Virus record (IMG/VR): IMGVR_UViG_2693429622_000002
Origin: a virus
Taxonomy: Duplodnaviria; Heunggongvirae; Uroviricota; Caudoviricetes
Strand: one strand, 5' to 3'
DNA length: 29,630 bases
The translations under genes and the position numbers were made by a program. The notes below the pieces were generated by a model. The model was not told the origin of the DNA. It searched no databases and saw nothing but the letters and a program-made list of their open reading frames with translations. Shown here in pieces: positions 1,846 to 29,630 of this stretch; within the stretch, counting starts at the first letter, position 1; the number at the start of each line of letters is the position of its first letter.

Positions 1846-5526
<3,681 letters not shown>

Positions 5527-11658: not shown

Positions 11659-14212
11659 ACCGGTAGGCGATCTGGTCGTTGATTTGAGTCTGGATGCGGC
11701 CAGATTTGACGAGCAGATGGCCAGAGTCAGGCGTCATTTTTCCGGTACGGAAAGTGATGCGAAAAAAACAGCGGCAGTCGTTGAACAGTCGCTGAGCCGA
11801 CAGGCGCTGGCTGCACAGAAAGCGGGGATTTCCGTCGGGCAGTATAAAGCCGCCATGCGTATGCTGCCTGCACAGTTCACCGACGTGGCCACGCAGCTTG
11901 CAGGGGGGCAGAATCCCTGGCTGATCCTGCTGCAACAGGGTGGTCAGGTTAAGGACTCCTTCGGCGGGATGATCCCCATGTTCAGGGGGCTTGCCGGCGC
12001 GATCACCCTGCCGATGGTGGGGGCCACCTCGCTGGCGGTGGCGACCGGTGCGCTGGCGTATGCCTGGTATCAGGGCAACTCAACCCTGTCCGATTTCAAC
12101 AAAACGCTGGTCCTTTCCGGTAATCAGGCGGGACTGACGGCAGATCGTATGCTGGTCCTGTCCAGAGCCGGGCAGGCGGCAGGGCTGACGTTTAACCAGA
12201 CCAGCGAGTCACTCAGCGCACTGGTTAAGGCGGGGGTAAGCGGTGAGGCTCAGATTGCGTCCATCAGCCAGAGTGTGGCGCGTTTCTCCTATGCATCCGG
12301 CGTGGAGGTGGACAAGGTCGCTGAAGCCTTCGGGAAGCTGACCACAGACCCGACGTCGGGGCTGACGGCGATGGCACGCCAGTTCCATAACGTGACGGCG
12401 GAGCAGATTGCGTATGTTGCTCAGTTGCAGCGTTCCGGCGATGAAGCCGGGGCATTGCAGGCGGCGAACGAGGCCGCAACGAAAGGGTTTGATGACCAGA
12501 CCCGCCGCCTGAAAGAGAACATGGGCACGCTGGAGACCTGGGCAGACAGGACTGCACGTGCATTCAAATCCATGTGGGATGCGGTGCTGGATATTGGTCG
12601 TCCTGATACCGCGCAGGAGATGCTGATTAAGGCAGAGGCTGCGTTTAAGAAAGCAGACGACATCTGGAATCTGCGCAAGGATGATTATTTCGTTAACGAT
12701 GAAGCACGGGCGCGTTACTGGGATGATCGTGAAAAAAAACGCCTGGAGCGGGATGCAGCCCAAAAGAGGGTAGATCAACAGCGTCAACAGGACAAAAATG
12801 CGCAGCAGCAGAGCGATACCGAAGCGTCACGGCTGAAATATACCGAAGAGGCGCAGAAGGCTTACGAACGGCTGCAGACGCCGCTGGAGAAATATACCGC
12901 CCGTCAGGAAGAACTGAACAAGGCACTGAAAGACGGAAAAATCCTGCAGGCAGATTACAACACGCTGATGGCGGCGGCGAAAAAGGATTATGAAGCGACG
13001 CTGAAAAAGCCGAAACAGTCCGGCGTGAAGGTGTATGCGGGCGATCGTCAGGAAGACAGTGCTCATGCGGCCCTGCTGACGCTTCAGGCAGAACTCCGGA
13101 CGCTGGAGAAGCATGCCGGAGCGAATGAGAAAATCAGCCAGCAGCGCCGGGATTTGTGGAAGGCAGAAAGTCAGTTCGCGGTACTGGAGGAGGCGGCACA
13201 ACGTCGCCAGCTGTCCGCACAGGAGAAATCCCTGCTGGCGCATAAAGACGAGACGCTGGAGTACAAACGCCAGCTGGCTGCACTTGGTGACAAGGTTACG
13301 TATCAGGAGCACCTGAATGCGCTGGCGCAGCAGGCGGATAAATTCGCACAGCAGCAACGGGCAAAACGGGCAGCCATTGATGCGAAAAACCGGGGGCTGA
13401 CTGACCGGCAGGCAGCGCGGGAAGCCACGGAACAGCGCCTGAAGGAACAGTATGGCGATAATCCTCTGGCGCTGAATAACGTCATGTCAGAGCAGAAAAA
13501 GACCTGGGCGGCTGAAGACCAGCTTCGCGGGAGCTGGATGGCAGGCCTGAAGTCCGGCTGGAGTGAGTGGGAAGAGAGCGCCACGGACAGTATGTCACAG
13601 GTTAAAAGTGCAGCCACGCAGACCTTTGATGGTATTGCACAGAATATGGCGGCGATGCTGACCGGCAGTGAACAGAACTGGCGCAGCTTCACCCGCTCCG
13701 TGCTGTCCATGATGACAGAAATTCTGCTTAAGCAGGCAATGGTGGGGATTGTCGGGAGTATCGGCAGCGCCATTGGCGGGGCTGTTGGTGGCGGCGCATC
13801 CGCGTCAGGTGGTACAGCCATTCAGGCCGCTGCGGTGAAATTCCATTTTGCAACCGGGGGATTTACGGGAACCGGCGGCAAATATGAGCCAGCGGGGATT
13901 GTTCACCGTGGTGAATTTGTCTTCACGAAGGAGGCAACCAGCCGGATTGGCGTGGGGAATCTCTACCGGCTGATGCGCGGCTATGCGGAAGGTGGTTATG
14001 TGGGCGGTGCCGGAAGTCCGGCGCAGATGCGGCGGGCTGAAGGCATTAATTTTAATCAGAACAATCACGTGGTGATTCAGAACGACGGTACGAATGGTCT
14101 GCCAGGTCCACAGATGATGAAGGCCGTGTATGACATGGCCCGCAAGGGTGCCCGTGATGAAATTCAGACACAGATGCGTGATGGTGGCCTGTTCTCCGGA
14201 GGTGGACGATGA
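11651..14212 (+). CDS. H: Tail tape measure protein H (853 aa)
   Basis: 853 aa as in lambda gpH; helical Ala/Gln/Glu-rich centre and Gly-rich C-terminal region. Confidence 0.95.
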   Translation: MAEPVGDLVVDLSLDAARFDEQMARVRRHFSGTESDAKKTAAVVEQSLSRQALAAQKAGISVGQYKAAMRMLPAQFTDVATQLAGGQNPWLILLQQGGQVKDSFGGMIPMFRGLAGAITLPMVGATSLAVATGALAYAWYQGNSTLSDFNKTLVLSGNQAGLTADRMLVLSRAGQAAGLTFNQTSESLSALVKAGVSGEAQIASISQSVARFSYASGVEVDKVAEAFGKLTTDPTSGLTAMARQFHNVTAEQIAYVAQLQRSGDEAGALQAANEAATKGFDDQTRRLKENMGTLETWADRTARAFKSMWDAVLDIGRPDTAQEMLIKAEAAFKKADDIWNLRKDDYFVNDEARARYWDDREKKRLERDAAQKRVDQQRQQDKNAQQQSDTEASRLKYTEEAQKAYERLQTPLEKYTARQEELNKALKDGKILQADYNTLMAAAKKDYEATLKKPKQSGVKVYAGDRQEDSAHAALLTLQAELRTLEKHAGANEKISQQRRDLWKAESQFAVLEEAAQRRQLSAQEKSLLAHKDETLEYKRQLAALGDKVTYQEHLNALAQQADKFAQQQRAKRAAIDAKNRGLTDRQAAREATEQRLKEQYGDNPLALNNVMSEQKKTWAAEDQLRGSWMAGLKSGWSEWEESATDSMSQVKSAATQTFDGIAQNMAAMLTGSEQNWRSFTRSVLSMMTEILLKQAMVGIVGSIGSAIGGAVGGGASASGGTAIQAAAVKFHFATGGFTGTGGKYEPAGIVHRGEFVFTKEATSRIGVGNLYRLMRGYAEGGYVGGAGSPAQMRRAEGINFNQNNHVVIQNDGTNGLPGPQMMKAVYDMARKGARDEIQTQMRDGGLFSGGGR

Positions 14213-14538
14213 AAACCTTCCGCTGGAAAGTGAAACCCGGTATGGATGTGGCTTCGGCCCCTTCTGTAAGAAAGGTGCGCTTTGGTGATGGCTATTCCCA
14301 GCGAGCGCCTGCCGGGCTGAATGCCAACCTGAAAACGTACAGCGTGACGCTTTCTGTCCCCCGTGAGGAGGCCATGGTACTGGAGTCGTTTCTGGAAGAG
14401 CACGGGGGCTGGAAAGCCTTTCTGTGGACGCCGCCTTATGAGTGGCGGCAGATAAAGGTGACCTGCGCAAAATGGTCGTCGCGGGTCAGTATGCTGCGTG
14501 TTGAGTTCAGCGCAGAGTTTGAACAGGTGGTGAACTGA
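14209..14538 (+). CDS. M: Tail tip protein M (109 aa)
   Basis: 109 aa, overlaps H stop, lambda synteny. Confidence 0.9.
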   Translation: MKTFRWKVKPGMDVASAPSVRKVRFGDGYSQRAPAGLNANLKTYSVTLSVPREEAMVLESFLEEHGGWKAFLWTPPYEWRQIKVTCAKWSSRVSMLRVEFSAEFEQVVN

Positions 14539-15236
14539 TGCAGGATATCCGGCAGGAAACACTGAATGAATGCACCCGTGCGGAGCAGTCGGCCAGCGTG
14601 GTGCTCTGGGAAATCGATCTGACAGAGGTCGGTGGAGAACGTTATTTTTTCTGTAATGAGCAGAACGAAAAAGGTGAGCCGGTCACCTGGCAGGGGCGAC
14701 AGTATCAGCCGTATCCCATTCAGGGGAGTGGTTTTGAACTGAATGGCAAAGGCACCAGTACGCGCCCCACGCTGATGGTTTCTAACCTGTACGGTATGGT
14801 CACCGGGATGGCGGAAGATCTACAGAGTCTGGTCGGCGGAACGGTGGTCCGGCGTAAGGTTTACGCCCGTTTTCTGGATGCGGTGAACTTCGTCAACGGA
14901 AACAGTGACGCCGATCCGGAGCAGGAGGTGATCAGCCGCTGGCGCATTGAGCAGTGCAGCGAACTGAGCGCGGTGAGTGCCTCTTTTGTACTGTCCACGC
15001 CGACGGAAACAGATGGCGCTGTTTTTCCGGGACGTATCATGCTGGCCAACACCTGCACCTGGACCTATCGCGGCGATGAGTGCGGTTATCACGGTCCGGC
15101 GGTCGCGGATGAATATGACCAGCCAACGTCCGACATCACGAAGGATAAATGCAGCAAATGCCTGAGTGGCTGTAAGTTTCGCAATAACGTCGGCAACTTT
15201 GGCGGCTTCCTTTCCATTAACAAACTTTCGCAGTAA
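14538..15236 (+). CDS. L: Tail tip protein L (232 aa)
   Basis: 232 aa, ATGA overlap with M, lambda synteny. Confidence 0.9.
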   Translation: MQDIRQETLNECTRAEQSASVVLWEIDLTEVGGERYFFCNEQNEKGEPVTWQGRQYQPYPIQGSGFELNGKGTSTRPTLMVSNLYGMVTGMAEDLQSLVGGTVVRRKVYARFLDAVNFVNGNSDADPEQEVISRWRIEQCSELSAVSASFVLSTPTETDGAVFPGRIMLANTCTWTYRGDECGYHGPAVADEYDQPTSDITKDKCSKCLSGCKFRNNVGNFGGFLSINKLSQ

Positions 15237-15241
15237 ATCCC

Positions 15242-15985
15242 ATGACAGAGACAGAATCAGCGATTCTGGCGCACGCCCGGCGATGTGCTCCAGCGGAGTC
15301 GTGCGGCTTCGTGGTAAGAACGCCGGAGGGGGAAAGATATTTCCCCTGCGTGAATATCTCCGGTGAGCCGGAGGCGTATTTCCGTATGTCGCCGGAAGAC
15401 TGGCTGCAGGCAGAGATGCAGGGTGAGATTGTGGCACTGGTCCACAGCCACCCCGGTGGTCTGCCCTGGCTGAGTGAGGCCGACCGGCGGCTGCAGGTGC
15501 AGAGTGATTTGCCGTGGTGGCTGGTCTGCCGGGGGGCGATTCACAAGTTCCGCTGTGTGCCACATCTTACCGGGCGGCGCTTTGAGCACGGGGTGACGGA
15601 CTGTTACACGCTGTTCCGGGATGCTTACCATCTGGCGGGGATTGAGATGCCGGATTTTCATCGTGAGGATGACTGGTGGCGTCACGGTCAGAATCTCTAT
15701 CTGGATAATCTGGAGGCCACAGGGCTGTATCAGGTGCCGTTGTCAGCGGCGCAGCCGGGCGATGTGCTGCTGTGCTGTTTTGGTTCATCGGTGCCGAATC
15801 ATGCCGCCATTTACTGTGGTGACGGCGAGCTGCTGCACCATATTCCTGAACAACTGAGCAAACGAGAGAGGTATACCGACAAATGGCAGCGACGCACACA
15901 CTCCCTCTGGCGTCACCGGGCATGGCACGCATCTGCCTTTACGGGGATTTGCAACGATTTGGCCGCCGCATCGACCTTCGTGTGA
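15242..15985 (+). CDS. K: Tail tip assembly protein K with JAMM/MPN-like and NlpC/P60-like motifs (247 aa ORF; alternative start at 15386 gives the 199-aa form I recall for lambda)
   Basis: HSHPGGLPWLSEAD (H-x-H-x7-S-x2-D, JAMM-like) and Cys/His pattern (TDCYTLF, NHAAIYCGDGELLHH) consistent with NlpC/P60; true start codon uncertain. Confidence 0.85.
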   Translation: MTETESAILAHARRCAPAESCGFVVRTPEGERYFPCVNISGEPEAYFRMSPEDWLQAEMQGEIVALVHSHPGGLPWLSEADRRLQVQSDLPWWLVCRGAIHKFRCVPHLTGRRFEHGVTDCYTLFRDAYHLAGIEMPDFHREDDWWRHGQNLYLDNLEATGLYQVPLSAAQPGDVLLCCFGSSVPNHAAIYCGDGELLHHIPEQLSKRERYTDKWQRRTHSLWRHRAWHASAFTGICNDLAAASTFV

Positions 15986-16554
15986 AAACGGGTGCCGAAG
16001 CCATCCGGGCGATGGCCACACAGCTCCCTGCGTTTCGTCAGAAGCTGAGCGACGGCTGGTATCAGGTGCGTATTGCCGGGCAGGATGTTAGCACGTCCGG
16101 ATTAACGGCACAGTTACATGAGGCTCTGCCTGACGGCGCTGTGATTCATATTGTTCCCAGAGTCGCCGGGGCCAAGTCAGGTGGTGTATTCCAGATTGTC
16201 CTGGGAGCAGCCGCCATTGCCGGATCATTCTTTACCGCCGGAGCCACCCTTGCAGCATGGGGGGCTGCCATTGGTGCCGGTGGTATGACCGGCATTCTGT
16301 TTTCTCTCGGTGCCAGTATGGTGCTCGGCGGTGTGGCTCAGATGCTGGCACCGAAAGCCAGAACTCCCCGCACACAGACAACGGATAACGGTAAGCAGAA
16401 CACCTATTTCTCCTCACTGGATAACATGGTTGCCCAGGGCAATGTTATGCCTGTTCTGTATGGTGAAATGCGCGTGGGGTCACGTGTGGTATCTCAGGAG
16501 ATCAGCACGGCAGACGAAGGGGACGGTGGTCAGGTTGTGGTGATTGGTCGCTGA
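15883..16554 (+). CDS. I: Tail tip assembly protein I (223 aa)
   Basis: 223 aa; overlaps the 3' end of K by about 100 bp in another frame as in lambda. Confidence 0.9.
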   Translation: MAATHTLPLASPGMARICLYGDLQRFGRRIDLRVKTGAEAIRAMATQLPAFRQKLSDGWYQVRIAGQDVSTSGLTAQLHEALPDGAVIHIVPRVAGAKSGGVFQIVLGAAAIAGSFFTAGATLAAWGAAIGAGGMTGILFSLGASMVLGGVAQMLAPKARTPRTQTTDNGKQNTYFSSLDNMVAQGNVMPVLYGEMRVGSRVVSQEISTADEGDGGQVVVIGR

Positions 16555-16614
16555 TGCAAAATGTTTTATGTGAAATCGCCTCCGGGCGGTTTTATCGTTT
16601 ATGGAGCATGACGA

Positions 16615-19600
16615 ATGGGTAAAGGCAGCAGTAAGGGGCATACCCCGCGCGAAGCGAAGGACAACCTGAAGTCCACGCAGCTGCTGAGTGTGATCGATGC
16701 CATCAGCGAAGGGCCGGTTGAAGGTCCGGTGGATGGATTAAAAAGCGTGCTGCTGAACAGTACGCCGGTGCTGGACAGTGAGGGGAATACCAACATCTCC
16801 GGCGTCACGGTGGTGTTCCGGGCAGGTGAGCAGGAGCAGTCACCGCCGGAGGGATTTGAATCCTCCGGCTCCGAGACGGTGCTGGGTACGGAAGTGAAAT
16901 ATGACACGCCGATCACCCGGACCATCACGTCGGCAAACATTGACCGACTGCGTTTTACCTTCGGTGTACAGGCACTGGTGGAAACCACCTCAAAGGGAGA
17001 CAGGAATCCGTCTGAAGTTCGCCTGCTGGTTCAGATACAGCGTAACGGTGGCTGGGTGACGGAAAAAGACATCACCATTAAGGGCAAAACCACCTCGCAG
17101 TATCTGGCCTCGGTGGTGGTGGATAACCTGCCGCCGCGCCCGTTTAATATCCGGATGCGCAGAATGACGCCGGACAGCACCACAGACCAGCTGCAGAACA
17201 AAACGCTCTGGTCGTCATACACCGAAATCATCGATGTGAAACAGTGCTACCCGAACACGGCACTGGTCGGCGTACAGGTGGATTCGGAGCAGTTCGGCAG
17301 CCAGCAGGTGAGCCGTAATTATCATCTTCGCGGGCGCATTCTGCAGGTGCCGTCGAACTATAATCCGCAGACGCGGCAATACAGCGGTATCTGGGACGGA
17401 ACGTTAAAACCGGCATACAGCAACAACATGGCCTGGTGTCTGTGGGATATGCTGACCCATCCGCGCTATGGCATGGGGAAACGTCTTGGTGCGGCAGATG
17501 TGGATAAATGGGCGCTGTATGTCATCGGCCAGTACTGTGACCAGTCGGTGCCGGACGGCTTTGGCAGCACGGAGCCGCGCATCACCTGTAATGCCTGGCT
17601 GACCACACAGCGCAAGGCGTGGGATGTGCTCAGTGATTTCTGCTCGGCGATGCGCTGTATGCCGGTATGGAACGGGCAGACGCTGACGTTCGTGCAGGAC
17701 CGACAGTCGGATAAGGTGTGGGCCTATAACCGCAGTAATGTGGTGATGCCGGATGATGGCGCGCCGTTCCGCTACAGTTTCAGCGCCCTGAAAGACCGCC
17801 ATAATGCCGTTGAGGTGAACTGGATTGACCCAGATAACGGCTGGGAGACGGCGACAGAGCTTGTGGAGGATACGCAGGCCATTGCCCGTTACGGTCGTAA
17901 TGTCACGAAGATGGATGCCTTTGGCTGTACCAGCCGGGGGCAGGCACACCGCGCCGGGCTGTGGCTGATTAAAACGGAACTGCTGGAGACGCAGACCGTG
18001 GATTTCAGCGTGGGTGCTGAAGGGCTTCGTCATGTACCGGGCGATGTCATTGAAATCTGCGATGATGACTATGCCGGTATCCGCACCGGCGGGCGCGTGC
18101 TGGCGGTGAACAGCCAGACCCGGACGCTGACGCTCGACCGTGAAATCACGCTGCCATCCTCCGGCACCACGCTGATAAGCCTGGTTGACGGGCAGGGGAA
18201 TCCGGTCAGCGTGGAGGTCCAGTCCGTCACCGACGGCGTGAAGGTAAAAGTGAGCCGTGTTCCTGACGGTGTTGCTGAATACAGCGTGTGGGGGCTGAAG
18301 CTGCCGACGCTGCACCAGCGATTGTTCCGCTGCGTGAGTATCCGTGAGAACGACGACGGCACGTATGCCATCACCGCCGTGCAGCATGTGCCGGAAAAAG
18401 AAGCCATCGTGGATAACGGGGCGCACTTTGACGGCGACCAGAGCGGCACGGTGAATGGTGTCACGCCGCCAGCGGTGCAGCACCTGACTGCCGAAGTCAC
18501 CGCAGACAGCGGGGAATATCAGGTGCTGGCGCGCTGGGACACGCCGAAGGTGGTGAAGGGCGTGAGCTTCCTGCTCCGTCTGACCGTAACAGCGGATGAC
18601 GGCAGTGAGCGGCTGGTCAGCACGGCCCGGACGACGGAAACCACTTACCGCTTCACACAACTGGCGCTGGGGAACTACAGGCTGACAGTCCGGGCAGTAA
18701 ATGCGTGGGGGCAGCAGGGCGATCCGGCGTCGGTATCGTTCCGGATTGCCGCACCGGCAGCGCTGTCGCGGATTGAGCTGACGCCGGGCTATTTTCAGAT
18801 AACCGCCACGCCGCATCTTGCGGTTTATGATCCGACGGTACAGTTTGAGTTCTGGTTCTCGGAAAAGCGGATTGCGGATATCAGGCAGGTTGAAACCACA
18901 GCACGCTATCTTGGCACGGCGCTGTACTGGATAGCCGCCAGTATCAATATCAAACCGGGCCATGATTATTACTTTTATATCCGCAGTGTGAACACCGTTG
19001 GCAAATCGGCATTCGTGGAGGCTGTTGGTCAGCCGAGTGATGATGCATCCGGTTATCTGGATTTTTTCAAAGGCGAGATAGGGAAAACCCATCTGGCTCA
19101 GGAGCTGTGGACGCAGATTGATAACGGTCAGCTTGCGCCTGACCTGGCTGAAATCAGGACGTCCATTACGGATGTCAGCAATGAAATCACGCAGACCGTC
19201 AATAAGAAACTGGAAGACCAGAGTGCGGCAATTCAGCAGATACAGAAGGTTCAGGTTGATACAAATAATAACCTGAACAGCATGTGGGCTGTGAAGCTGC
19301 AGCAGATGCAGGACGGACGCCTTTATATCGCGGGTATTGGTGCCGGTATTGAGAACACCCCTGACGGCATGCAGAGTCAGGTGCTGCTGGCGGCGGACAG
19401 GATTGCGATGGTTAATCCTGCGAATGGCAACACAAAACCGATGTTTGTTGGTCAGGGCGATCAGATATTCATGAACGACGTGTTCCTGAAACGCCTGACG
19501 GCCCCCACCATTACCAGCGGTGGAAATCCATCGGCATTTTCCCTGACTCCGGACGGAAAGCTGACCGCTAAAAATGCGGATATCAGTGGCAGTGTGAATG

Positions 19601-20112
19601 CGAACGCCGGGACGCTCAACAATGTCACGGTAAATGAAAACTGTACGATTAAGGGCATGCTGGAGGCGACTCAGGTCAGAGGTGACTTCGTTAAAGCTGT
19701 ATCCAAATCATTTCCGAAACAGGCTGGTACGTGGGGTAACACGGAAACACCAAACGGGACGGTTACAGTCACCATAAGCGATGATCATAACTTTGACCGC
19801 CAGATTATTATTCCGCCCATTATTTTTAACGGTATAGCGTATGACGATCCGGGGAGCGGAAATAACCCAGGAGGCACGCGATACACGGGTTATGGTTTTG
19901 AAGTTCGCAAAAACGGCGTATTAATCGCATCCAGAGAAACTAAAGGTGCCATTCCCGGTAGTTACAGTGCAGTTATTGATATGCCTAGTGGTGGTGGTAG
20001 CGTCACTCTGGAGTTTAAGATTTTCCAGAAAGGCAATCAGGGGGCAGGCAATATCACCGACTGTACGGTGATTGTGACCAAAAAAGCGGCTTCCGGCATC
20101 AGTATTCGTTGA
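16615..20112 (+). CDS. J: Central tail fibre / host specificity protein J (1165 aa)
   Basis: Long ORF after I with conserved J N-terminal and central regions; about 33 aa longer than the 1132-aa lambda J I recall, so the C-terminal receptor-binding region is probably different from lambda's. Confidence 0.9.
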
Positions 20113-20134
20113 AATATTTATAACCCCAATAAAT

Positions 20135-20160
20135 GGCGTCAGGAATGACGCCTTTTTTAT
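20135..20160 (+). terminator. Intrinsic terminator after J (GGCGTCA-GGAA-TGACGCC + TTTTTTATT)
   Basis: Perfect 7-bp GC-rich stem and U-tract read directly. Confidence 0.7.
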
Positions 20161-20182
20161 TGCAGAAAAGCGAGAGGTAATT

Positions 20183-20296
20183 ATGCGTAAAGTTTGTGCA
20201 GCCATTTTGTCCGCAGCCATTTGCCTGGCCGTATCCGGTGCGCCTGCATGGGCGTCTGAACATCAGTCCACGCTGAGCGCGGGGTATCTTCATGCC
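20183..20296 (+). CDS. lom: lom 5' fragment (outer-membrane Lom/Ail family), cut by the assembly gap
   Basis: MRKVCAAILSAAICLAVSGAPAWASEHQSTLSAGYLHA, identical to the start of the 24601 copy; runs into the N run. Confidence 0.7.
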
Positions 20297-20307
20297 NNNN
20301 NNNNNNN
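20297..20307. other. Assembly gap (11 N)
   Basis: Run of n characters in the sequence. Confidence 1.
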
Positions 20308-21641
20308 CGCCTGTCACTATTGAACTGATACCGGGGTATTTTCAGATAACGGCGGTCCCGAAACTGGCTGTATATGACCCGACGGTGCAGTTTGAGTTCT
20401 GGTTTTCGGAAAAGCGGATTGCGGATATCAGGCAGGTTGAAACCACAGCACGCTATCTTGGCACGGCGCTGTACTGGATAGCCGCCAGTATCAATATCAG
20501 GCCGGGCCATGATTATTATTTTTACGTTCGCAGTGTGAACACCGTTGGCAAATCGGCATTTGTGGAGGCCATCGGTCGGGCGAGCGATGATGCAGAAGGT
20601 TATCTGAATTTTTATAAAGGGTTGATCAATAAAACGCATCTCGGCAAGGAGTTGTGGACGCAGATTGATAACGGTCAGCTTGCGCCGGACCTGACTGAAA
20701 TCAGGACGTCCATTACGAATGTCAGCAATGAAATCACGCAAACCGTCAATAAAAAACTGGAAAATCAGAGTGCTGCAATCCAGCAGATACAGAAAGTTCA
20801 GGTTGATACAAATAATAACCTGAACAGCATGTGGGCTGTGAAGCTGCAACAGATGAAGGACGGACGCCTTTATATTGCGGGTATCGGTGCCGGTATTGAG
20901 AATACGCCAGCAGGAATGCAGAGTCAGGTGCTGCTGGCGGCAGACAGGATTGCGATGATTAATCCTGCGAATGGCAACACAAAGCCGATGTTTGTTGGTC
21001 AGGGCGATCAGATATTCATGAACGACGTGTTCCTGAAATGCCTGACGGCTCCGACCATTACCAGCGGCGGTAATCCTCCGGCATTTTCCCTGACACCTGG
21101 CGGACGGCTGACGGCGAAAAATGCCGATATCAGCGGTAACGTGAACGCGAACTCCGGGACGCTCAACAACGTCACGATTAATAAGAACTGTCGGGTTCTG
21201 GGAAAATTGTCCGCGAACCAGATTGAAGGCGATCTCGTTAAAACAGTGGGCAAACCTTTCCCACGGGACTCCCGGGCACCGGAGAGGTGGCCATCAGGGA
21301 CCATTACCGTCAGGGTTTATGACGATCAGCCGTTTGATCGGCAAATTGTTATTCCCGCGGTGGCGTTTCGCGGTGCTAAACATGAGCGGAAGAATAACAA
21401 TATTTATTCGTCATGCCGCCTGATAGTGAAGAAAAACGGTGCTGAAATTTATAACCGAACGACCCTGGATAATACGCTGATATATACGGGTGTTATTGAT
21501 ATGCCTGCCGGTCACGGTCACATGACGCTGGAGTTTTCTGTATCGGCATGGCTGGTAAATGGCTGGTATCCCACAGCAAGTATCAGCGATTTGCTGGTTG
21601 TGGTGATGAAGAAAGCCACTGCAGGCATCACGATTAGCTGA
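20308..21641 (+). CDS. J: J 3' fragment, variant allele (C-terminal about 444 aa; distinct receptor-binding tail ending ..[14 protein letters not shown])
   Basis: About 90% nucleotide identity by eye to 18778 onward in the conserved part, diverging strongly over the last 130 codons; 5' end missing at the gap. Confidence 0.8.
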
Positions 21642-21660
21642 ATTTTATAACCCAGATACG

Positions 21661-21686
21661 GGCACCAGAAATGGTGCCTTTTTTAT
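21661..21686 (+). terminator. Intrinsic terminator after variant J (GGCACC-AGAAAT-GGTGCC + TTTTTTATT)
   Basis: Stem differs in sequence from the 20135 copy but base pairing is kept (compensatory changes). Confidence 0.7.
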
Positions 21687-21708
21687 TGCAGAAAAGCGAG
21701 AGGTAATT

Positions 21709-22308
21709 ATGCGTAAAGTTTGTGCAGCCATTTTGTCCGCAGCCATTTGCCTGGCCGTATCCGGTGCGCCTGCATGGGCGTCTGAACATCAGTCCACGCT
21801 GAGCGCCGGGTATCTTCAGACCCATACTGATATGCCAGGCAGCGATGACCTGAAGGGCATTAACGTGAAATACCGTTATGAGTTTACGGACACGCTGGGG
21901 CTGATTACGTCATTCAGTTATGCCAACGCTGAAGATGAGCAAAAAACGCATTACAGCGATACCCGCTGGCATGAGGATTCCGTGCGTAACCGCTGGTTCA
22001 GCGTGATGGCGGGGCCGTCTGTGCGCGTGAATGAATGGTTCAGCGCGTATGCGATGGCGGGCGTGGCTTACAGCCGTGTGTCGACCTTCTCCGGGGATTA
22101 TCTCCGCGTAACTGACAACAAGGGGAAAACGCACGATGTGCTGACCGGAAGTGATGGCGGTCGCCACAGCAACACGTCTCTGGCGTGGGGGGCTGGCGTG
22201 CAGTTTAACCCGACCGAATCCGTGGCCATTGACCTTGCTTATGAAGGTTCCGGCAGTGGTGACTGGCGCACTGACGGTTTCATCGTGGGTGTCGGTTATA
22301 AGTTCTGA
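21709..22308 (+). CDS. lom: Outer membrane protein Lom (Ail/Lom family beta-barrel), intact, 199 aa
   Basis: Signal-peptide-like N-terminus; C-terminus AYEGSGSGDWRTDGFIVGVGYKF matches lambda Lom from memory; GAGAGG RBS. Confidence 0.9.
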   Translation: MRKVCAAILSAAICLAVSGAPAWASEHQSTLSAGYLQTHTDMPGSDDLKGINVKYRYEFTDTLGLITSFSYANAEDEQKTHYSDTRWHEDSVRNRWFSVMAGPSVRVNEWFSAYAMAGVAYSRVSTFSGDYLRVTDNKGKTHDVLTGSDGGRHSNTSLAWGAGVQFNPTESVAIDLAYEGSGSGDWRTDGFIVGVGYKF

Positions 22309-22335
22309 TTAGCCAGGTAACACAGTGTTATGACT

Positions 22336-22361
22336 GCCCGCTGGTTCAGGCGGGCTTTTTG
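22336..22361 (+). terminator. Intrinsic terminator after lom (GCCCGC-TGGTTCA-GGCGGGC + TTTTTGT)
   Basis: Read directly. Confidence 0.7.
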
Positions 22362-22371
22362 TGGGGTGAAT

Positions 22372-22698
22372 ATGGCAGTAAAGATTTCAGGTGTACTGAA
22401 AGATGGGGCGGGTAAACCTGTCGTAAATTGTGCGATTGAACTGCGGGCCAGAAGAACCAGTCCGACCGTTGTGGCACACGTTGTTGCCACTTGCGTGACG
22501 GACAATAACGGTGCTTATGTGATTGAGGCTGAGCCGGGGTATTACGAGGTTGCGCTTCACTGTAACGGCTGGCAGCCAACCCGTGTCGGGGATATTGATG
22601 TGGCACCGACTGATGCACCGGGGACACTGAACGCGTTTCTGAATGCACCAAAGGATGGTGATTTACGTCCGGAGGTGATGAAGTGTCAGCGCCAGTGA
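22372..22698 (+). pseudogene. stf: Side tail fibre stf, variant N-terminal domain, truncated after about 100 codons by an IS21-family insertion
   Basis: [12 protein letters not shown].. aligns with the start of the full stf at 25182 but diverges; reading frame leaves stf-like sequence right after ..DLRPE and stops at 22698 inside the IS-like DNA. Confidence 0.7.
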
Positions 22699-22927
22699 TA
22701 TAAGACGGTAATTCGCCATTTGGATTGTCCGCTCCACCCAACATGTTGTTTCCTTAAGGTTCTCACACCAGAAAGGACATCAACATGCTGAGCAGAGAGG
22801 ACTTTTACATGATAAAGCAAATGCGCCAGCAGGGCGCGTACATCGTCGATATTGCGACTCAGATTGGTTGCTCTGAACGGACGGTCAGACGCTACCTCAA
22901 ATACCCTGAACCGCCAGCCAGAAAGAC
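22684..22927 (+). mobile_element. istA: IS21-family element, 5' end only (terminal sequence plus first 47 codons of istA), cut by the assembly gap
   Basis: ORF 22785-22927 encodes MLSREDFYMIKQMRQQGAYIVDIATQIGCSERTVRRYLKYPEPPARK, which I recognise as an IS21-type IstA N-terminal HTH; boundary near 22676-22684 inferred from where the stf alignment breaks. Confidence 0.65.
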
Positions 22928-22936
22928 NNNNNNNNN
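22928..22936. other. Assembly gap (9 N)
   Basis: Run of n characters in the sequence. Confidence 1.
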
Positions 22937-24530
22937 TCAGGTGCTGGCGCGCTGGGACACGCCGAAGGTGGTGAAGGGCGTGAGCTTCCTGCTCCGTCTG
23001 ACCGTAACAGCGGATGACGGCAGTGAGCGGCTGGTCAGCACGGCCCGGACGACGGAAACCACTTACCGCTTCACACAACTGGCGCTGGGGAACTACAGGC
23101 TGACAGTCCGGGCAGTAAATGCGTGGGGGCAGCAGGGCGATCCGGCGTCGGTATCGTTCCGGATTGCCGCACCGGCAGCGCTGTCGCGGATTGAGCTGAC
23201 GCCGGGCTATTTTCAGATAACCGCCACGCCGCATCTTGCGGTTTATGATCCGACGGTACAGTTTGAGTTCTGGTTCTCGGAAAAGCGGATTGCGGATATC
23301 AGGCAGGTTGAAACCACAGCACGCTATCTTGGCACGGCGCTGTACTGGATAGCCGCCAGTATCAATATCAAACCGGGCCATGATTATTACTTTTATATCC
23401 GCAGTGTGAACACCGTTGGCAAATCGGCATTCGTGGAGGCTGTTGGTCAGCCGAGTGATGATGCATCCGGTTATCTGGATTTTTTCAAAGGCGAGATAGG
23501 GAAAACCCATCTGGCTCAGGAGCTGTGGACGCAGATTGATAACGGTCAGCTTGCGCCTGACCTGGCTGAAATCAGGACGTCCATTACGGATGTCAGCAAT
23601 GAAATCACGCAGACCGTCAATAAGAAACTGGAAGACCAGAGTGCGGCAATTCAGCAGATACAGAAGGTTCAGGTTGATACAAATAATAACCTGAACAGCA
23701 TGTGGGCTGTGAAGCTGCAGCAGATGCAGGACGGACGCCTTTATATCGCGGGTATTGGTGCCGGTATTGAGAACACCCCTGACGGCATGCAGAGTCAGGT
23801 GCTGCTGGCGGCGGACAGGATTGCGATGGTTAATCCTGCGAATGGCAACACAAAACCGATGTTTGTTGGTCAGGGCGATCAGATATTCATGAACGACGTG
23901 TTCCTGAAACGCCTGACGGCCCCCACCATTACCAGCGGTGGAAATCCATCGGCATTTTCCCTGACTCCGGACGGAAAGCTGACCGCTAAAAATGCGGATA
24001 TCAGTGGCAGTGTGAATGCGAACGCCGGGACGCTCAACAATGTCACGGTAAATGAAAACTGTACGATTAAGGGCATGCTGGAGGCGACTCAGGTCAGAGG
24101 TGACTTCGTTAAAGCTGTATCCAAATCATTTCCGAAACAGGCTGGTACGTGGGGTAACACGGAAACACCAAACGGGACGGTTACAGTCACCATAAGCGAT
24201 GATCATAACTTTGACCGCCAGATTATTATTCCGCCCATTATTTTTAACGGTATAGCGTATGACGATCCGGGGAGCGGAAATAACCCAGGAGGCACGCGAT
24301 ACACGGGTTATGGTTTTGAAGTTCGCAAAAACGGCGTATTAATCGCATCCAGAGAAACTAAAGGTGCCATTCCCGGTAGTTACAGTGCAGTTATTGATAT
24401 GCCTAGTGGTGGTGGTAGCGTCACTCTGGAGTTTAAGATTTTCCAGAAAGGCAATCAGGGGGCAGGCAATATCACCGACTGTACGGTGATTGTGACCAAA
24501 AAAGCGGCTTCCGGCATCAGTATTCGTTGA
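22937..24530 (+). CDS. J: J 3' fragment (C-terminal 531 codons), exact duplicate of 18519-20112
   Basis: Nucleotide-identical to the corresponding part of the full J as far as I compared; 5' end missing at the gap. Confidence 0.8.
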
Positions 24531-24552
24531 AATATTTATAACCCCAATAAAT

Positions 24553-24578
24553 GGCGTCAGGAATGACGCCTTTTTTAT
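24553..24578 (+). terminator. Intrinsic terminator after J (duplicate of 20135-20160)
   Basis: Identical hairpin and U-tract. Confidence 0.7.
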
Positions 24579-24600
24579 TGCAGAAAAGCGAGAGGTAATT

Positions 24601-25083
24601 ATGCGTAAAGTTTGTGCAGCCATTTTGTCCGCAGCCATTTGCCTGGCCGTATCCGGTGCGCCTGCATGGGCGTCTGAACATCAGTCCACGCTGAGCGCGG
24701 GGTATCTTCATGCCCGGACCAACGTTCCCGGCAGTGATGATCTGAACGGGATTAACGTGAAATACCGTTATGAGTTTACGGATACGCTGGGGCTGGTGAC
24801 GTCATTCAGCTATGCAGGAGACAAGAATCGCCAGCTGACCCGTTACAGCGATACCCGCTGGCATGAAGATTCCGTGCGTAACCGCTGGTTCAGCGTGATG
24901 GCGGGGCCGTCTGTGCGCGTGAATGAATGGTTCAGCGCGTATGCGATGGCGGGTGTGGCTTACAGCCGTGTGTCGACTTTTTCCGGGGATTATATCCGCG
25001 TAACTGACAATAAGGGGAAAACGCACGATGTGCTGACCGGAAGTGATGACGGTCGCCACAGCAACACGTCTCTGGCGCACTGA
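24601..25083 (+). pseudogene. lom: lom with an 83-bp internal deletion near the 3' end (frameshift, premature stop; C-terminal strands lost)
   Basis: Compared with 21709-22308: ..TCTGGCG[83 bp missing]CACTGACGG..; the deletion is flanked by a CTGGCG direct repeat in the intact copy; ORF ends ..NTSLAH*. Confidence 0.75.
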
Positions 25084-25144
25084 CGGTTTCATCGTGGGTG
25101 TCGGTTATAAATTCTGATTAGCCAGGTAACACAGTGTTATGACA

Positions 25145-25170
25145 GCCCGCCGGTTCAGGCGGGCTTTTTT
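25145..25170 (+). terminator. Intrinsic terminator after lom (GCCCGCC-GGTTCA-GGCGGGC + TTTTTTGT)
   Basis: Read directly. Confidence 0.7.
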
Positions 25171-25181
25171 GTGGGGTGAAT

Positions 25182-28100
25182 ATGGCAGTAAAGATTTCAG
25201 GTGTACTGAAAGACGGCACAGGAAAACCGGTACAGAACTGCACAATCCAGCTGAAAGCAAAACGTAACAGCACCACGGTGGTGGTGAACACGCTGGCCTC
25301 AGAAAATCCGGATGAAGCCGGGCGTTACAGCATGGACGTTGAGTACGGTCAGTACAGCGTTATTCTGTTGGTGGAAGGATTCCCGCCGTCACATGCCGGG
25401 ACCATCACCGTGTATGAAGATTCCCGACCCGGTACGCTGAATGATTTTCTCGGTGCCATGACGGAGGATGATGCCCGTCCGGAGGCACTGCGCCGTTTTG
25501 AGCTGATGGTGGAAGAGGTGGCGCGTAACGCGTCCGCGGTGGCACAGAACACGGCAGCCGCGAAGAAATCAGCCAGCGATGCCAGCACATCAGCCCGTGA
25601 GGCGGCAACCCATGCGACTGATGCTGCAGATTCAGCACGTGCAGCCAGCACGTCAGCCGGACAGGCCGCTTCGTCGGCTCAGTCAGCGTCTTCCAGCGCA
25701 GGAACGGCATCAACAAAGGCCACTGAAGCCTCAAAAAGTGCTGCCGCTGCAGAGTCCTCAAAAAGCGCGGCGGCTACCAGTGCCGGTGCGGCGAAAACGT
25801 TAGAAACGAATGCGGCAGCGTCACAACAATCAGCAGCCACTTCTGCATCCACCGCGACCACGAAAGCGTCAGAAGCTGCCACCTCAGCCCGGGATGCGTC
25901 GGCTTCAAAAGAGGCGGCAAAATCATCAGAAACGAACGCATCATCAAGCGCCAGTAGCGCAGCTTCCTCGGCGACGGCGGCTGCAAATTCTGCGAAGGCG
26001 GCCAAAACGTCCGAGACGAACGCCAGGTCTTCTGAAACGGCAGCGGGACAGAGTGCCTCAGCTGCGGCAGGCTCAAAAACAGCGGCTGCGTCGTCTGCCA
26101 GCGCCGCGTCAACAAGTGCCGGGCAGGCCTCAGCCAGTGCCACCGCCGCCGGAAAATCGGCAGAAAGCGCCGCATCATCCGCTTCAACAGCCACAACGAA
26201 GGCTGGCGAAGCCACTGAGCAGGCCACGGCAGCAGCGAGGTCAGCTTCCGCAGCGAAGACATCCGAAACGAACGCGAAAGCGTCGGAAACCCGTGCAGAA
26301 TCCTCAAAAACGGCTGCCGCATCGTCCGCCAGTTCGGCGGCGTCATCGGCATCATCGGCGTCTGCTTCAAAAGATGAGGCGACCAGACAGGCGTCAGCAG
26401 CGAAGGGCAGCGCCACGACGGCATCCACGAAGGCGACAGAGGCTGCTGGTAGTGCGACGGCAGCAGCTCAGAGCAAAAGTACGGCGGAATCTGCAGCAAC
26501 GCGCGCTGAGACAGCGGCAAAACGGGCAGAGGATATTGCATCCGCCGTGGCGCTTGAGGATGCGAGCACGACGAAAAAGGGGATAGTACAGCTCAGTAGT
26601 GCGACTAACAGCACTTCCGAGTCACTGGCGGCAACACCAAAAGCCGTTAAGGCCGCGTATGACCTGGCTAACGGGAAATACACCGCACAGGATGCAACGA
26701 CAGCACAGAAAGGGATAATCCAGCTAAGCAGCGCGACCAACAGCACGTCTGAAACGCTGGCGGCAACGCCAAAGGCAGTAAAAGCAGCCAATGACAATGC
26801 TGAGAAACGTCTGCAGAAAGATCAGAACGGTGCGGATATCCCTGGCAAAGACACCTTTACGAAAAATATTGGTGCCTGCCGTGCCTTCGGTGGGTCAGTA
26901 AGCACAACAACAGGAAACTGGACGACTGCACAGTTTATCGAGTGGCTGGATTCTCAGGGAGCATTTAACCATCCATACTGGATGTGCAAGGGTTCCTGGT
27001 CTTATGGCAATAATAAAATCATTACTGATACTGGCTGCGGTAATATTCATCTCGCCGGAGCTGTCATTGAAGTAATGGGGATAAAGTCAGCGATGACGAT
27101 CCGCATTACCACTCCGACCACATCCAGCGGTGGCGGAACAACCAACGCCCAGTTTACCTATATTAATCACGGAACAGATTATTCACCTGGCTGGCGAAGG
27201 GACTATAACTCCAGAAATAAGCCAACGGCATCAGAGATCGGGGCGCTACCGTCAGGTGGAACAGCAGTATCATCAGTTAATCTGGCTTCAAAAGGTCGGG
27301 TAGCCGCGCTGACAGACAATACGCAGGGGGCAGCAGGTCTTGAGTTATACGAGGTGTATAACAACGGATATCCAACAGCGTATGGAAATATCATTCACCT
27401 GAAAGGGATGACAGCCGTTGGCGAAGGTGAGTTACTCATCGGCTGGAGTGGTACAAGCGGTGCTCATGCTCCGGCATTTATTCGTTCACGACGGGATACG
27501 ACCGACGCAAACTGGTCGCCGTGGGCGCAGCTTTACACCTCGGCTCATCCTCCTGCAGAGTTTTATCCAGTCGGTGCACCAATCCCGTGGCCATCAGATA
27601 CCGTTCCGTCTGGTTATGCCCTGATGCAGGGGCAGACTTTTGACAAATCTGCTTACCCGAAACTTGCAGCCGCTTATCCGTCAGGCGTGATCCCTGATAT
27701 GCGTGGCTGGACGATTAAGGGCAAGCCCGCCAGTGGTCGTGCCGTATTGTCTCAGGAACAGGATGGCATTAAATCGCACACCCACAGCGCCAGCGCATCC
27801 AGTACGGATTTGGGGACGAAAACCACATCGTCGTTTGATTACGGCACTAAATCCACGAATAACACCGGGGCGCATACGCACAGTCTGAGCGGCTCTACAA
27901 GTTCAGCTGGGGCCCACCAACATAGTCAGACTGGGCCCAGAACGAATAGCGGGAGTCAACCTACTGGAATGTTTCCGGCAGGGAGTACTCAAGTTAGCGG
28001 GACTAATCAGGTTGGTATCAGTGGCTCATTAACCAGTGGCACCTCCCAATGGGTAGGTAAATCATCTTCAGAAGGAAACCATACACACTCACTGTCCGGC

Positions 28101-28265
28101 ACAGCAGCATCTGCGGGTGCACACGCGCATACTGTCGGTATTGGTGCTCATACGCACTCTGTTGCGATTGGTTCACATGGACACACCATCACCGTTAACG
28201 CTGCTGGTAACGCGGAAAACACCGTCAAAAACATCGCATTTAACTATATTGTGAGGCTCGCATAA
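25182..28265 (+). CDS. stf: Side tail fibre protein Stf (about 1027 aa from ATG 25182): N-terminal attachment domain, long Ala/Ser/Thr-rich repetitive shaft, C-terminal tip with repeated His-x-His motifs
   Basis: N-terminus [67 protein letters not shown] matches lambda Stf from memory; tip motifs [52 protein letters not shown] at about 27770-28195; GTG at 25176 is likely a track artefact. Confidence 0.9.
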
Positions 28266-28846
28266 TGGCATTCAGAATGAGTGAACAAGCACGGACCATA
28301 AAAATTTATAACCTGCTGGCCGGAACTAATGAATTTATTGGTGAAGGTGACGCATATATTCCGCCTCATACAGGTCTGCCTGCAAACAGTACCGATATTG
28401 CACCGCCAGATATTCCGGCTGGTTTCGTGGCTGTTTTCAACAGTGATGAGTCATCGTGGCATCTCGTTGAAGATCATCGGGGTAAAACGGTTTATGACGT
28501 GGCTTCCGGCGACGCGTTATTTATTTCTGAACTCGGCTCATTACCGGAAAATGTCACCTGGTTATCCCCGGAAGGGGAGTTTCAGAAGTGGAACGGCACA
28601 GCCTGGGTGAAGGATACGGAAGCAGAAAAACTGTTCCGGATCCGGGAGGCGGAAGAAACAAAAAACAGCCTGATGCAGGTAGCCAGTGAGCATATAGCGC
28701 CGCTTCAGGATGCTGTGGATCTGGAGATCGCAACGGAGAAAGAAACCTTGTTGCTGGAAGCTTGGAAAAAGTATCGGGTGTTGCTGAACCGTGTTGATAC
28801 ATCAACTGCACCGGATATTGAATGGCCAGTAGCACCTATAGGGTAA
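28265..28846 (+). CDS. tfa: Tail fibre assembly chaperone Tfa (193 aa)
   Basis: [54 protein letters not shown] matches lambda Tfa from memory; ATG overlaps the stf stop (TAATG). Confidence 0.9.
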
Positions 28847-28930
28847 ATTCGTAATGATTACCTAAATACGTTATTCTTTTGTTAAAAAAGTGATTTTGCT
28901 ATAGGTAGGGAGTATGTTCTTGGATTAAGA

Positions 28931-28962
28931 ATAAAAAATCGCCATGAAAGAGCTTCATGGCG
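28931..28962 (-). terminator. Intrinsic terminator oriented for leftward transcription (CGCCATGAA-AGAGC-TTCATGGCG, then T-run on the minus strand)
   Basis: Perfect 9-bp inverted repeat at 28940-28962; on the minus strand it is followed by ATTTTTTAT (plus 28931-28939). Implies a leftward transcript originating to the right. Confidence 0.5.
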
Positions 28963-29630
28963 AGTACATAAACGTACAAAATGTGATGAAAGTAGAGTGG
29001 CGTAAGCCACTATATTAAGATATGACAATAGCGAAGAAAAGTAAATAACATTTTATGGACGTTTAATTGTTAATTATAAAAACTAGAGTGCCCGATATTG
29101 TTTATCTTGCTTTAAAATAATGTACTCAAACCAAATTTTTGAGCTAAAAGCTCAAATAATATAAATGCAATAATAATGTTTAATAAGACAATTAGCTTGC
29201 TTTGTATTTTCATTTCGGAATACTGTTAAGTAACTTTGATGACCCTAACAATAGATCGGAATTTTCTTAGAGTCAATGGTCACTGTTTTTGCTTGCAAAG
29301 CAAATGTTTTGGTGGTTATAAGTCGTCTTAATATAGTCACGCATGCAACTTGTTCCATGCGGAGATTAAAGATTGGAATATAACGCGAAGATGGAATTAA
29401 ATTACATTTGCAATAATTAATTTATTATTACTCAATAATTACCGATATTATTATTGTAAATTAATCATTAGAATGCAAAAAGAAATGTAACGGCAAAATA
29501 AGAGGACGATAGCTGAGAAAAAAGCGTGCTTTCCCAATCTGGGGCAAATCACGTCTGAATGACACCTGAAAACAGGTGGTAGCCTCAAGAAGGCTGGTGA
29601 TGCTGCCAACTTACTGATTTAGTGTATGAT

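Follow-up and report, generated by a model that had tools for sequence, protein, structure and literature searches.

A triple J-lom-stf array in a lambdoid prophage contig is very probably a scaffolding artefact

Is the row of J, lom and stf genes in this viral contig a genuine tandem array, or does it reflect the way in which the contig was put together? In the window, that is, the whole stretch of 29,630 nt that was analysed, the list of open reading frames and the Pfam matches return three J pieces, three lom copies, two stf starts and an IS, all on the plus strand, as a preliminary description of this DNA had listed them. The same description had proposed a concatenation of contigs from related prophages or of overlapping contig ends, and this is supported on comparative evidence. 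It is known that most false duplications have an assembly gap between the copies (bioRxiv 10.1101/2021.04.09.438957), and that short reads are defeated by homologous prophage content (PMC10925052). Judged from sequence comparison, it is highly probable that the triple array is a scaffolding artefact, in which three contigs were joined into one sequence, with short stretches of N as spacers.

Results

An exact duplication with N runs at its edges

The exact 1778-bp duplication with N runs at the edges of its copies, which had been claimed before, was found again at the same coordinates. A direct comparison within the window has shown that copy 1 (18519-20296) and copy 2 (22937-24714) are identical in 1778 of 1778 nt, with no mismatch; the copies of a false duplication are identical or nearly so. 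Each copy consists of 1594 nt of the 3' part of J, the intergenic spacer and 114 nt of the 5' part of lom. No exact repeat of 1778 nt is expected by chance in 29.6 kb. A repeat search has returned the same pair and, in addition, a weaker third copy (88%) in 20319-20618.

There are only two N runs in the whole window, one of 11 N (20297-20307) and one of 9 N (22928-22936), and no further non-ACGT letters. To the base, both N runs coincide with the inner ends of the repeat: copy 1 abuts the 11-N run, which is the right limit of the identity, and the 9-N run directly before copy 2 is the left limit. An assembly gap between the copies or at their edges, as is seen in false duplications, is therefore present in the form of both N runs. 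With these runs as scaffold spacers, the window consists of three contigs, which we call A (1-20296), B (20308-22927) and C (22937-29630).

The genes of pieces A and C

Piece A (contig 1) leads from lambda-type packaging, head and tail genes to a complete J gene and 38 codons of lom, with the 11-N run next to them. It matches a closed E. coli prophage, annotated from terminase over tape measure to J and lom, in one HSP of 20.3 kb at 97.4%. The complete J (16615-20112) codes for the tail tip attachment or host specificity protein of 1165 aa; its Pfam domains Phage-tail_3, FNIII-A_GpJ, Ig_J, Ig_J_second, Phage_Tail_Tip and Ig_GpJ_C are all above the cut-off. The lom fragment that follows (20183-20296) covers positions 1-38 of 199 of Ail_Lom (E = 9e-18) and is ended by the gap.

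Piece C (contig 3) starts with the third J piece, a 3' fragment (22937-24530) seen in both the reading frames and Pfam. Next comes the lom of the A/C prophage (24601-25083), truncated to 160 aa by a frameshifting deletion of 83 nt between CTGGCG direct repeats; the deletion junction is common to 8 other loci. It is followed by stf (25182-28265), the side tail fibre gene of 1027 aa with the domains phage_tail_N, Phage_fiber_2 and Collar, and by tfa (28265-28846), the gene of the tail fibre assembly protein (Caudo_TAP, E = 5e-44).

The collapsed locus in related genomes

How is this locus arranged in relatives? We used a collapsed model, in which B is removed and the overlap of A and C is merged (1-20296 + 24715-29630). 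Assembly L178 matches 17926-20296 + 24715-29630 at 100.0% over 7287 nt, with 0 mismatches and 0 gaps. The model is found in other assemblies at 99.97% (L004), 99.955% (L189), 99.95% (L062), 99.94% (L067) and 99.87% (L081). In total, 34 HSPs cross both repeat boundaries of the model, and the matched stretch of the six assemblies just named is without N. The matches of L178 and L004 point to C as the true continuation of A, with an overlap of 1778 nt.

Note that this near-identical support comes from short-read contigs of other isolates, whereas the closed genomes speak for the architecture and not for strain-level identity, their closest matches being 97.4% for A and 97.1% for C. In the closed genome ET82, A and C both align to one J-lom-stf-tfa stretch, and in isolated lambdoid phages a 10-kb query (16000-26000) stacks on a single stretch of ~5.66 kb. 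In closed E. coli genomes as well as in isolated lambdoid phages, the collapsed sequence occurs at ~95-97% and in a single copy. A falsely duplicated locus is single in independent assemblies, closed genomes and phages, and so it is here. Two or more J 3' fragments at one locus were seen in 0 of 175 N-free loci, and among relatives at 99.87-100% identity none has the repeat with an alternative flank.

The idea of overlapping contig ends fits these results well: A and C share 1778 identical bases, and the merged form is uninterrupted in N-free contigs at 99.87-100%. Likewise, the join of 16615-20112 to 24601 onward, which had been suggested as the true one, is the arrangement that the relatives have. 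After collapse, the genes stand in the order J, lom, stf, tfa, with Pfam domains above the cut-off in 4 of 4 genes. Both the gene order and the domains (six GpJ domains, Ail/Lom, phage_tail_N/Collar and Caudo_TAP) are the same as in the J-lom-stf-tfa region of phage lambda. On the other hand, the 83-nt deletion in lom sets the locus apart from lambda, as does the low identity (~60%) between the J receptor-binding ends of the two prophages.

The origin of piece B

Piece B (contig 2), with the structure J'-lom'-stf'::IS21, has counterparts in N-free relatives and matches positions 8001-10376 of L008 at 99.07%. It begins with a J' 3' fragment of 444 codons (20308-21641), which starts in the middle of the gene, at about residue 717, without a start codon; accordingly, it matches Ig_J_second from profile position 3, followed by Phage_Tail_Tip and Ig_GpJ_C. 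Its first 944 nt are 86% identical to the J of A and C; in the receptor-binding end the identity falls to ~60%. The lom' gene (21709-22308) is of full length, with 199 aa and a match to Ail_Lom from 1 to 199 of 199 (E = 4e-129). Of stf' there is the 5' end of 104 codons (22372-22683; phage_tail_N, 1-104 of 134), interrupted by the IS.

All matches of B to closed genomes end at 22683. The remaining 244 nt (22684-22927), which have HTH domains, are 100% identical to an annotated "IS21-like element IS21 family transposase istA". They are the left end of the element and include the start of istA, of which there are 47 codons (22785-22927). A complete element of the IS21 family has ~2 kb, with istA behind the terminal repeat, istB and a target-site duplication. 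What we see resembles an IS21-family insertion in a prophage stf in the sharp end of homology at 22683/22684, in the left end with istA that is identical to annotated elements, and in the stf::IS junction, which an IMG/VR scan found in 6 other assemblies. It differs in that the first 244 nt stand alone: the element is multi-copy in relatives, and contig B breaks off within it, so that the window has neither the right end nor the target-site duplication. The exact stf::IS21 junction had 0 matches in GTDB representative genomes.

In the closed O121 genome NZ_CP119441 (the L008 match), B lies at 99.07% inside one J-lom-stf of a prophage that adjoins yecD/aspS. In the N-free contigs L003, L005 and L006, the sequence upstream of B is its own J 5' part, 92-94% identical to A. 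Having its own J 5' part and, in a closed genome, another chromosomal site, B is by these alignments from a different prophage than A and C. That contigs of more than one related lambdoid prophage are involved had been proposed, and it is borne out by the different J 5' part contiguous with B and by the 99.1% match within one J gene of the prophage at the other site.

The junctions

The two junctions sever genes at non-homologous points: lom is cut after codon 38, and a 244-nt IS21 stub is followed by the middle of J. A real tandem duplication should have readable junctions that are reproduced independently, but both junctions here are N runs. The case for such a duplication fails because L004, though 99.97% identical, has other junction partners (the IS up to 22927, then N, then J from 17953, as compared with J from 18519 in the window), and because none of the 175 N-free loci has an array. 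In sister assemblies we find N-separated chains of J fragments of the same kind, with single Ns and with other break coordinates.

It could also be asked whether the assembly was contiguous here and the N runs mask real bases. This is very unlikely, as the N spacers of the sister assemblies lie at analogous, but different coordinates.

As for the contig ends, A ends 16 nt past the longest exact run of B and C (131 nt, 20150-20280), C starts within an exact run of 44 nt (18490-18533), and the start of B follows a run of 43 nt at a distance of 12 nt. The ends are close to, not exactly at, the edges of shared exact repeats, which is suggestive only. Since exact paralogue runs of 30 nt or more are found once per ~100 nt, we did not count this coincidence as evidence.

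Discussion

The source would be an E. coli/Shigella-type genome with several related lambdoid prophages, assembled as a draft from short reads. A (1-20296) and C (22937-29630) would be overlapping ends of one lambda-like prophage, and the 1778 nt common to them would have been written twice, without merging. B (20308-22927) would be a piece of a second prophage, with 1.3 kb of the J 3' part, lom and the stf start interrupted by the IS21-like element; most likely J, lom and stf are so similar that read pairs or alignments in them linked it to the place between A and C, although we infer this step. The real locus would then run from 1-20296 directly to 24715-29630, with a single copy each of J, lom (truncated), stf and tfa.

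Potentially, the 1778-nt segment could be a true repeat, which two prophages of this genome share since a gene conversion or recombination event not long ago; in that case A and C come from different prophages, and the scaffold is still wrong. Lambdoid J-lom-stf regions are indeed mosaic, with paralogous copies in a median of 3-4 places per E. coli genome, the L004 genome contains at least 3 J variants, and an assembler may extend contigs into a common repeat from either side. We nevertheless regard such a repeat as very improbable, since the left flank of A, the repeat and the right flank of C are uninterrupted at 99.87-100% in six independent assemblies, no other flank of the repeat was seen among relatives at that identity, and the closed genomes are collinear, with A and then the tail of C. 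Still less credit goes to the written order being real, i.e. to a partial tandem array J-lom' / J'-lom-stf'::IS21 / J-lom-stf with N runs that hide a few bases, arisen for example when two prophages recombined illegitimately or through IS21. An IS21-like element does stand at one junction, IS elements mediate rearrangements, and the prophages of E. coli are well known to recombine with one another. However, this order requires two illegitimate junctions, each exactly under an N run, together with zero divergence over 1778 nt, and leaves behind two J fragments without promoter and start as well as a 244-nt IS stub. Moreover, the near-identical L004 has another partner at the corresponding junction (J 17953 vs 18519), and the order is absent from the 175 N-free related contigs and from the closed genomes and isolated phages examined. 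By the same measure, there is hardly any chance that IS21-associated recombination with a second prophage has supplied the prophage of this strain with alternative J receptor-binding ends, lom and stf starts in a tandem array; if true, the array would be a stock of host-range cassettes for homologous recombination.

Some observations count against reading the array as an artefact. The N spacers are 11 and 9 long, unlike a fixed spacer, a pure de Bruijn assembler would not usually leave contig ends with an exact overlap of 1778 nt, and the contig ends do not fall exactly on the edges of the repeats shared by the paralogous genes. In addition, the comparative support comes from other isolates, and there is a small chance of a private rearrangement in this one strain.

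The probable scaffolding artefact has much in common with the false duplications of vertebrate assemblies (bioRxiv 10.1101/2021.04.09.438957): the copies are identical, gaps lie at their edges, independent or better assemblies have a single copy, and the fragments are annotated as paralogues. The difference is that here the genome is a haploid bacterial one and that the intervening contig is a paralogue from another prophage, not an allelic haplotype.

The array is very probably no real feature, and there is no new biology in the window; its value is practical, as a caution to those who annotate such sequences or maintain viral-contig databases. Annotation of the sequence as written leads to false paralogues of J, lom and stf, to a false prophage length and to false "tandem tail-fibre" architectures. 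Surveys of host range or tail fibres in such collections should break contigs at N runs, however short, and drop duplicate flanks. The same pattern of fragment chains occurs in several IMG/VR contigs from isolate drafts.

The duplication and the gene content of the window

A direct comparison within the window finds no mismatch between 18519-20296 and 22937-24714 (1778 nt each), and the only non-ACGT characters in its 29,630 nt are a run of 11 Ns (20297-20307) and a run of 9 Ns (22928-22936). Both the exact duplication and the two runs, as reported in the preliminary description, are thus borne out. The identity cannot be extended, as the first copy abuts the 11-N run and the second starts right after the 9-N run. 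A repeat search of the window returned the same pair and, in addition, a partial third copy with 88% identity at 20319-20618. Given the two N runs and the limits of the identity, the window divides into three pieces, A (1-20296), B (20308-22927) and C (22937-29630), separated from each other by N spacers.

By its ORFs and database match, piece A carries a lambda-type morphogenesis block, from the small and large terminase to the portal, head and tail genes, and it aligns as a single 20.3-kb HSP (97.4% identity) with an annotated prophage of a closed genome. It includes a complete J gene (16615-20112, 1165 aa), in which Pfam recognises all six GpJ domains, and ends 38 codons into lom (20183-20296). 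The phage genes of pieces B and C were likewise assigned with Pfam. Piece B opens in the middle of J, at position 3 of the Ig_J_second profile (around residue 717 of J), and lacks the start codon; this J' fragment (20308-21641, ending at the stop) is followed by a full lom' (21709-22308, 199 aa), the first 104 codons of stf' (22372-22683) and, in the last 244 nt, the left end of an IS21-like element with the start of istA, at 100% identity to IS21-like elements. Piece C also opens within J, at the position equivalent to 18519, and continues with a truncated lom (24601-25083), stf (25182-28265) and tfa (28265-28846). The earlier inventory was correct: J and lom are each present as three pieces, stf has two starts, and there is one IS.

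Piece B is 86% identical to A/C over the first 944 nt and 90-96% identical in lom and the start of stf. In the receptor-binding domain, which takes up roughly the final 380 nt of J, identity is about 60%. The first 1000 nt of the window have a low G+C content (39.7% vs 51-60% in the structural genes) and match DUF1398 and YlcI/YnfO genes, found upstream of the terminase in a closed relative.

Pieces A and C describe one locus

We compared a collapsed model (window 1-20296 joined to 24715-29630) with 189 IMG/VR loci, fetched by three exact patterns, namely the stf::IS21 junction and 40-mers over each repeat boundary. In this comparison, 34 HSPs crossed both repeat boundaries with at least 200 nt on each side. 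The best match, L178, covers 7287 nt without mismatches or gaps, corresponding to window 17926-20296 plus 24715-29630; further such matches are L004 (99.97%), L189 (99.955%, from 13967), L062 (99.95%), L067 (99.94%) and L081 (99.87%). The matched stretch contains no N in any of the six. The left flank of A, the repeat and the right flank of C are thus present, in exactly this sequence and only once, in several independently assembled prophages that are near-identical to this one; these comparators are short-read contigs of other isolates. Of the 175 N-free loci, none contains more than one J 3' fragment.

Closed genomes, available as comparators at 95-97% identity only, give the same picture: in strain ET82, A and C both map to one reference stretch, in a prophage with J, lom, stf and tfa once each, followed by a GGDEF gene, ybhB and bioA. 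In isolated and propagated lambdoid phages (ev099, phi458, Kati, PhiR68_2 and others), a 10-kb query (16000-26000) matches one J-lom-stf stretch of ~5.66 kb. Pieces A and C represent one locus, which they cover with an overlap.

The lom gene of this prophage (24601-25083) lacks, at 25066-25077, 83 nt that are present in the lom of B and of closed genomes. The deletion is flanked by two CTGGCG direct repeats and causes a frameshift, giving 160 aa instead of 199. It is a real lineage marker and not an assembly error, because its junction recurs in eight other loci (L004, L045, L062, L081, L147, L151, L173 and L178).

In the closest closed prophage (NZ_CP101005.1), portal, J and lom are annotated as pseudogenes with an internal stop or frameshift (locus 13903-15504, 26573-30068 and 30139-30737), which could reflect real decay or long-read consensus errors.

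Piece B belongs to another prophage

Three N-free loci (L003, L005 and L006) contain piece B at 99.6-99.8% identity and continue unbroken upstream into the 5' part of a J gene with only 92-94% identity to the J of A. Piece B is also found, at 99.07%, in the closed O121 genome NZ_CP119441, within a single J-lom-stf region of a prophage that adjoins yecD/aspS and has a different tape-measure region. Piece B is a paralogous fragment of another prophage.

The match in NZ_CP119441 ends at 22683, where the IS21-like element starts in the window, interrupting the stf of the second prophage behind codon 104 (22683/22684). Six IMG/VR contigs, which come from different isolates, share exactly this junction; closed genomes whose J'-lom' is 99% identical have no IS21-like insertion in stf.

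In NZ_CP119441.1, an ipaH-type T3SS effector gene (locus 12231-13982) follows the B-type J-lom-stf prophage, and the genomes with the best matches to B have large plasmids (~274-294 kb) and many IS21 copies. Together, these features hint that the window comes from an enteroinvasive E. coli or Shigella-like lineage.

How the window may have been assembled

On comparative evidence, we regard the feature as an assembly artefact and the real locus as an ordinary lambda-type J-lom-stf-tfa module. The earlier reading of a mis-scaffolded region is supported by the single collapsed copy in relatives, the placement of B in another prophage and the variation in breakpoints. Alternatively, two prophages could each carry a genuine copy of the 1778 nt, with A and C derived from different elements; the uninterrupted contigs that run from the A flank through the repeat into the C flank at 99.87-100% speak against this. 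That the written order is real is highly improbable: it would require two illegitimate junctions, each exactly masked by an N run, and copies that have not diverged at all, and in L004 the corresponding junction has different partners. In this contig, which is 99.97% identical to C, B ends at the same IS coordinate (22927), and a single N is followed by J from 17953 rather than 18519; upstream, a second B-type piece is chained, differing from the first at 28 of 2402 nt.

As for the mechanism, read pairs or a reference may have led a scaffolder to link the A, B and C contigs, because long stretches of J, lom and the start of stf are highly similar between prophages of the same genome; the longest exact runs are 131 nt between B and C and 158 nt between the J of A and the B-type J' of relatives. 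The tiny gaps would then have been written where the distance estimate was around zero or negative. For a negative gap estimate with an undetected overlap, some scaffolders write a minimal N spacer. Short-read assembly is known to be limited by homologous lambdoid prophages (PMC10925052). False duplications in assemblies are mostly gap-separated (bioRxiv 10.1101/2021.04.09.438957), and the window shares this signature.

Fragment chains in other assemblies

In other assemblies, the B contig is broken at 22714-22736 or 294 nt beyond 22927, which is the pattern of contig ends within a multi-copy IS. At single Ns in L001, L002, L041, L108, L126 and L169, the alignment with the collapsed model steps backwards or changes its identity class. 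Chains of J, lom and stf fragments separated by single Ns occur in L041 and L074 (IMGVR_UViG_2700989365_000006), L151, L108, L126, L169, L001 and L004, and one J 40-mer is present in up to five copies within one such contig. Many IMG/VR contigs from isolate drafts carry chains of this kind, from which we conclude that the same scaffolding artefact is widespread in the collection. Locus L002 also changes type at a point without an N (3065-3074): its J is B-type on one side (100% to window 20308-21002) and gives way to the 3' part of a C-type J (99.2-99.5% to 23441-24895). Either this J is a true recombinant or the contig is chimeric.
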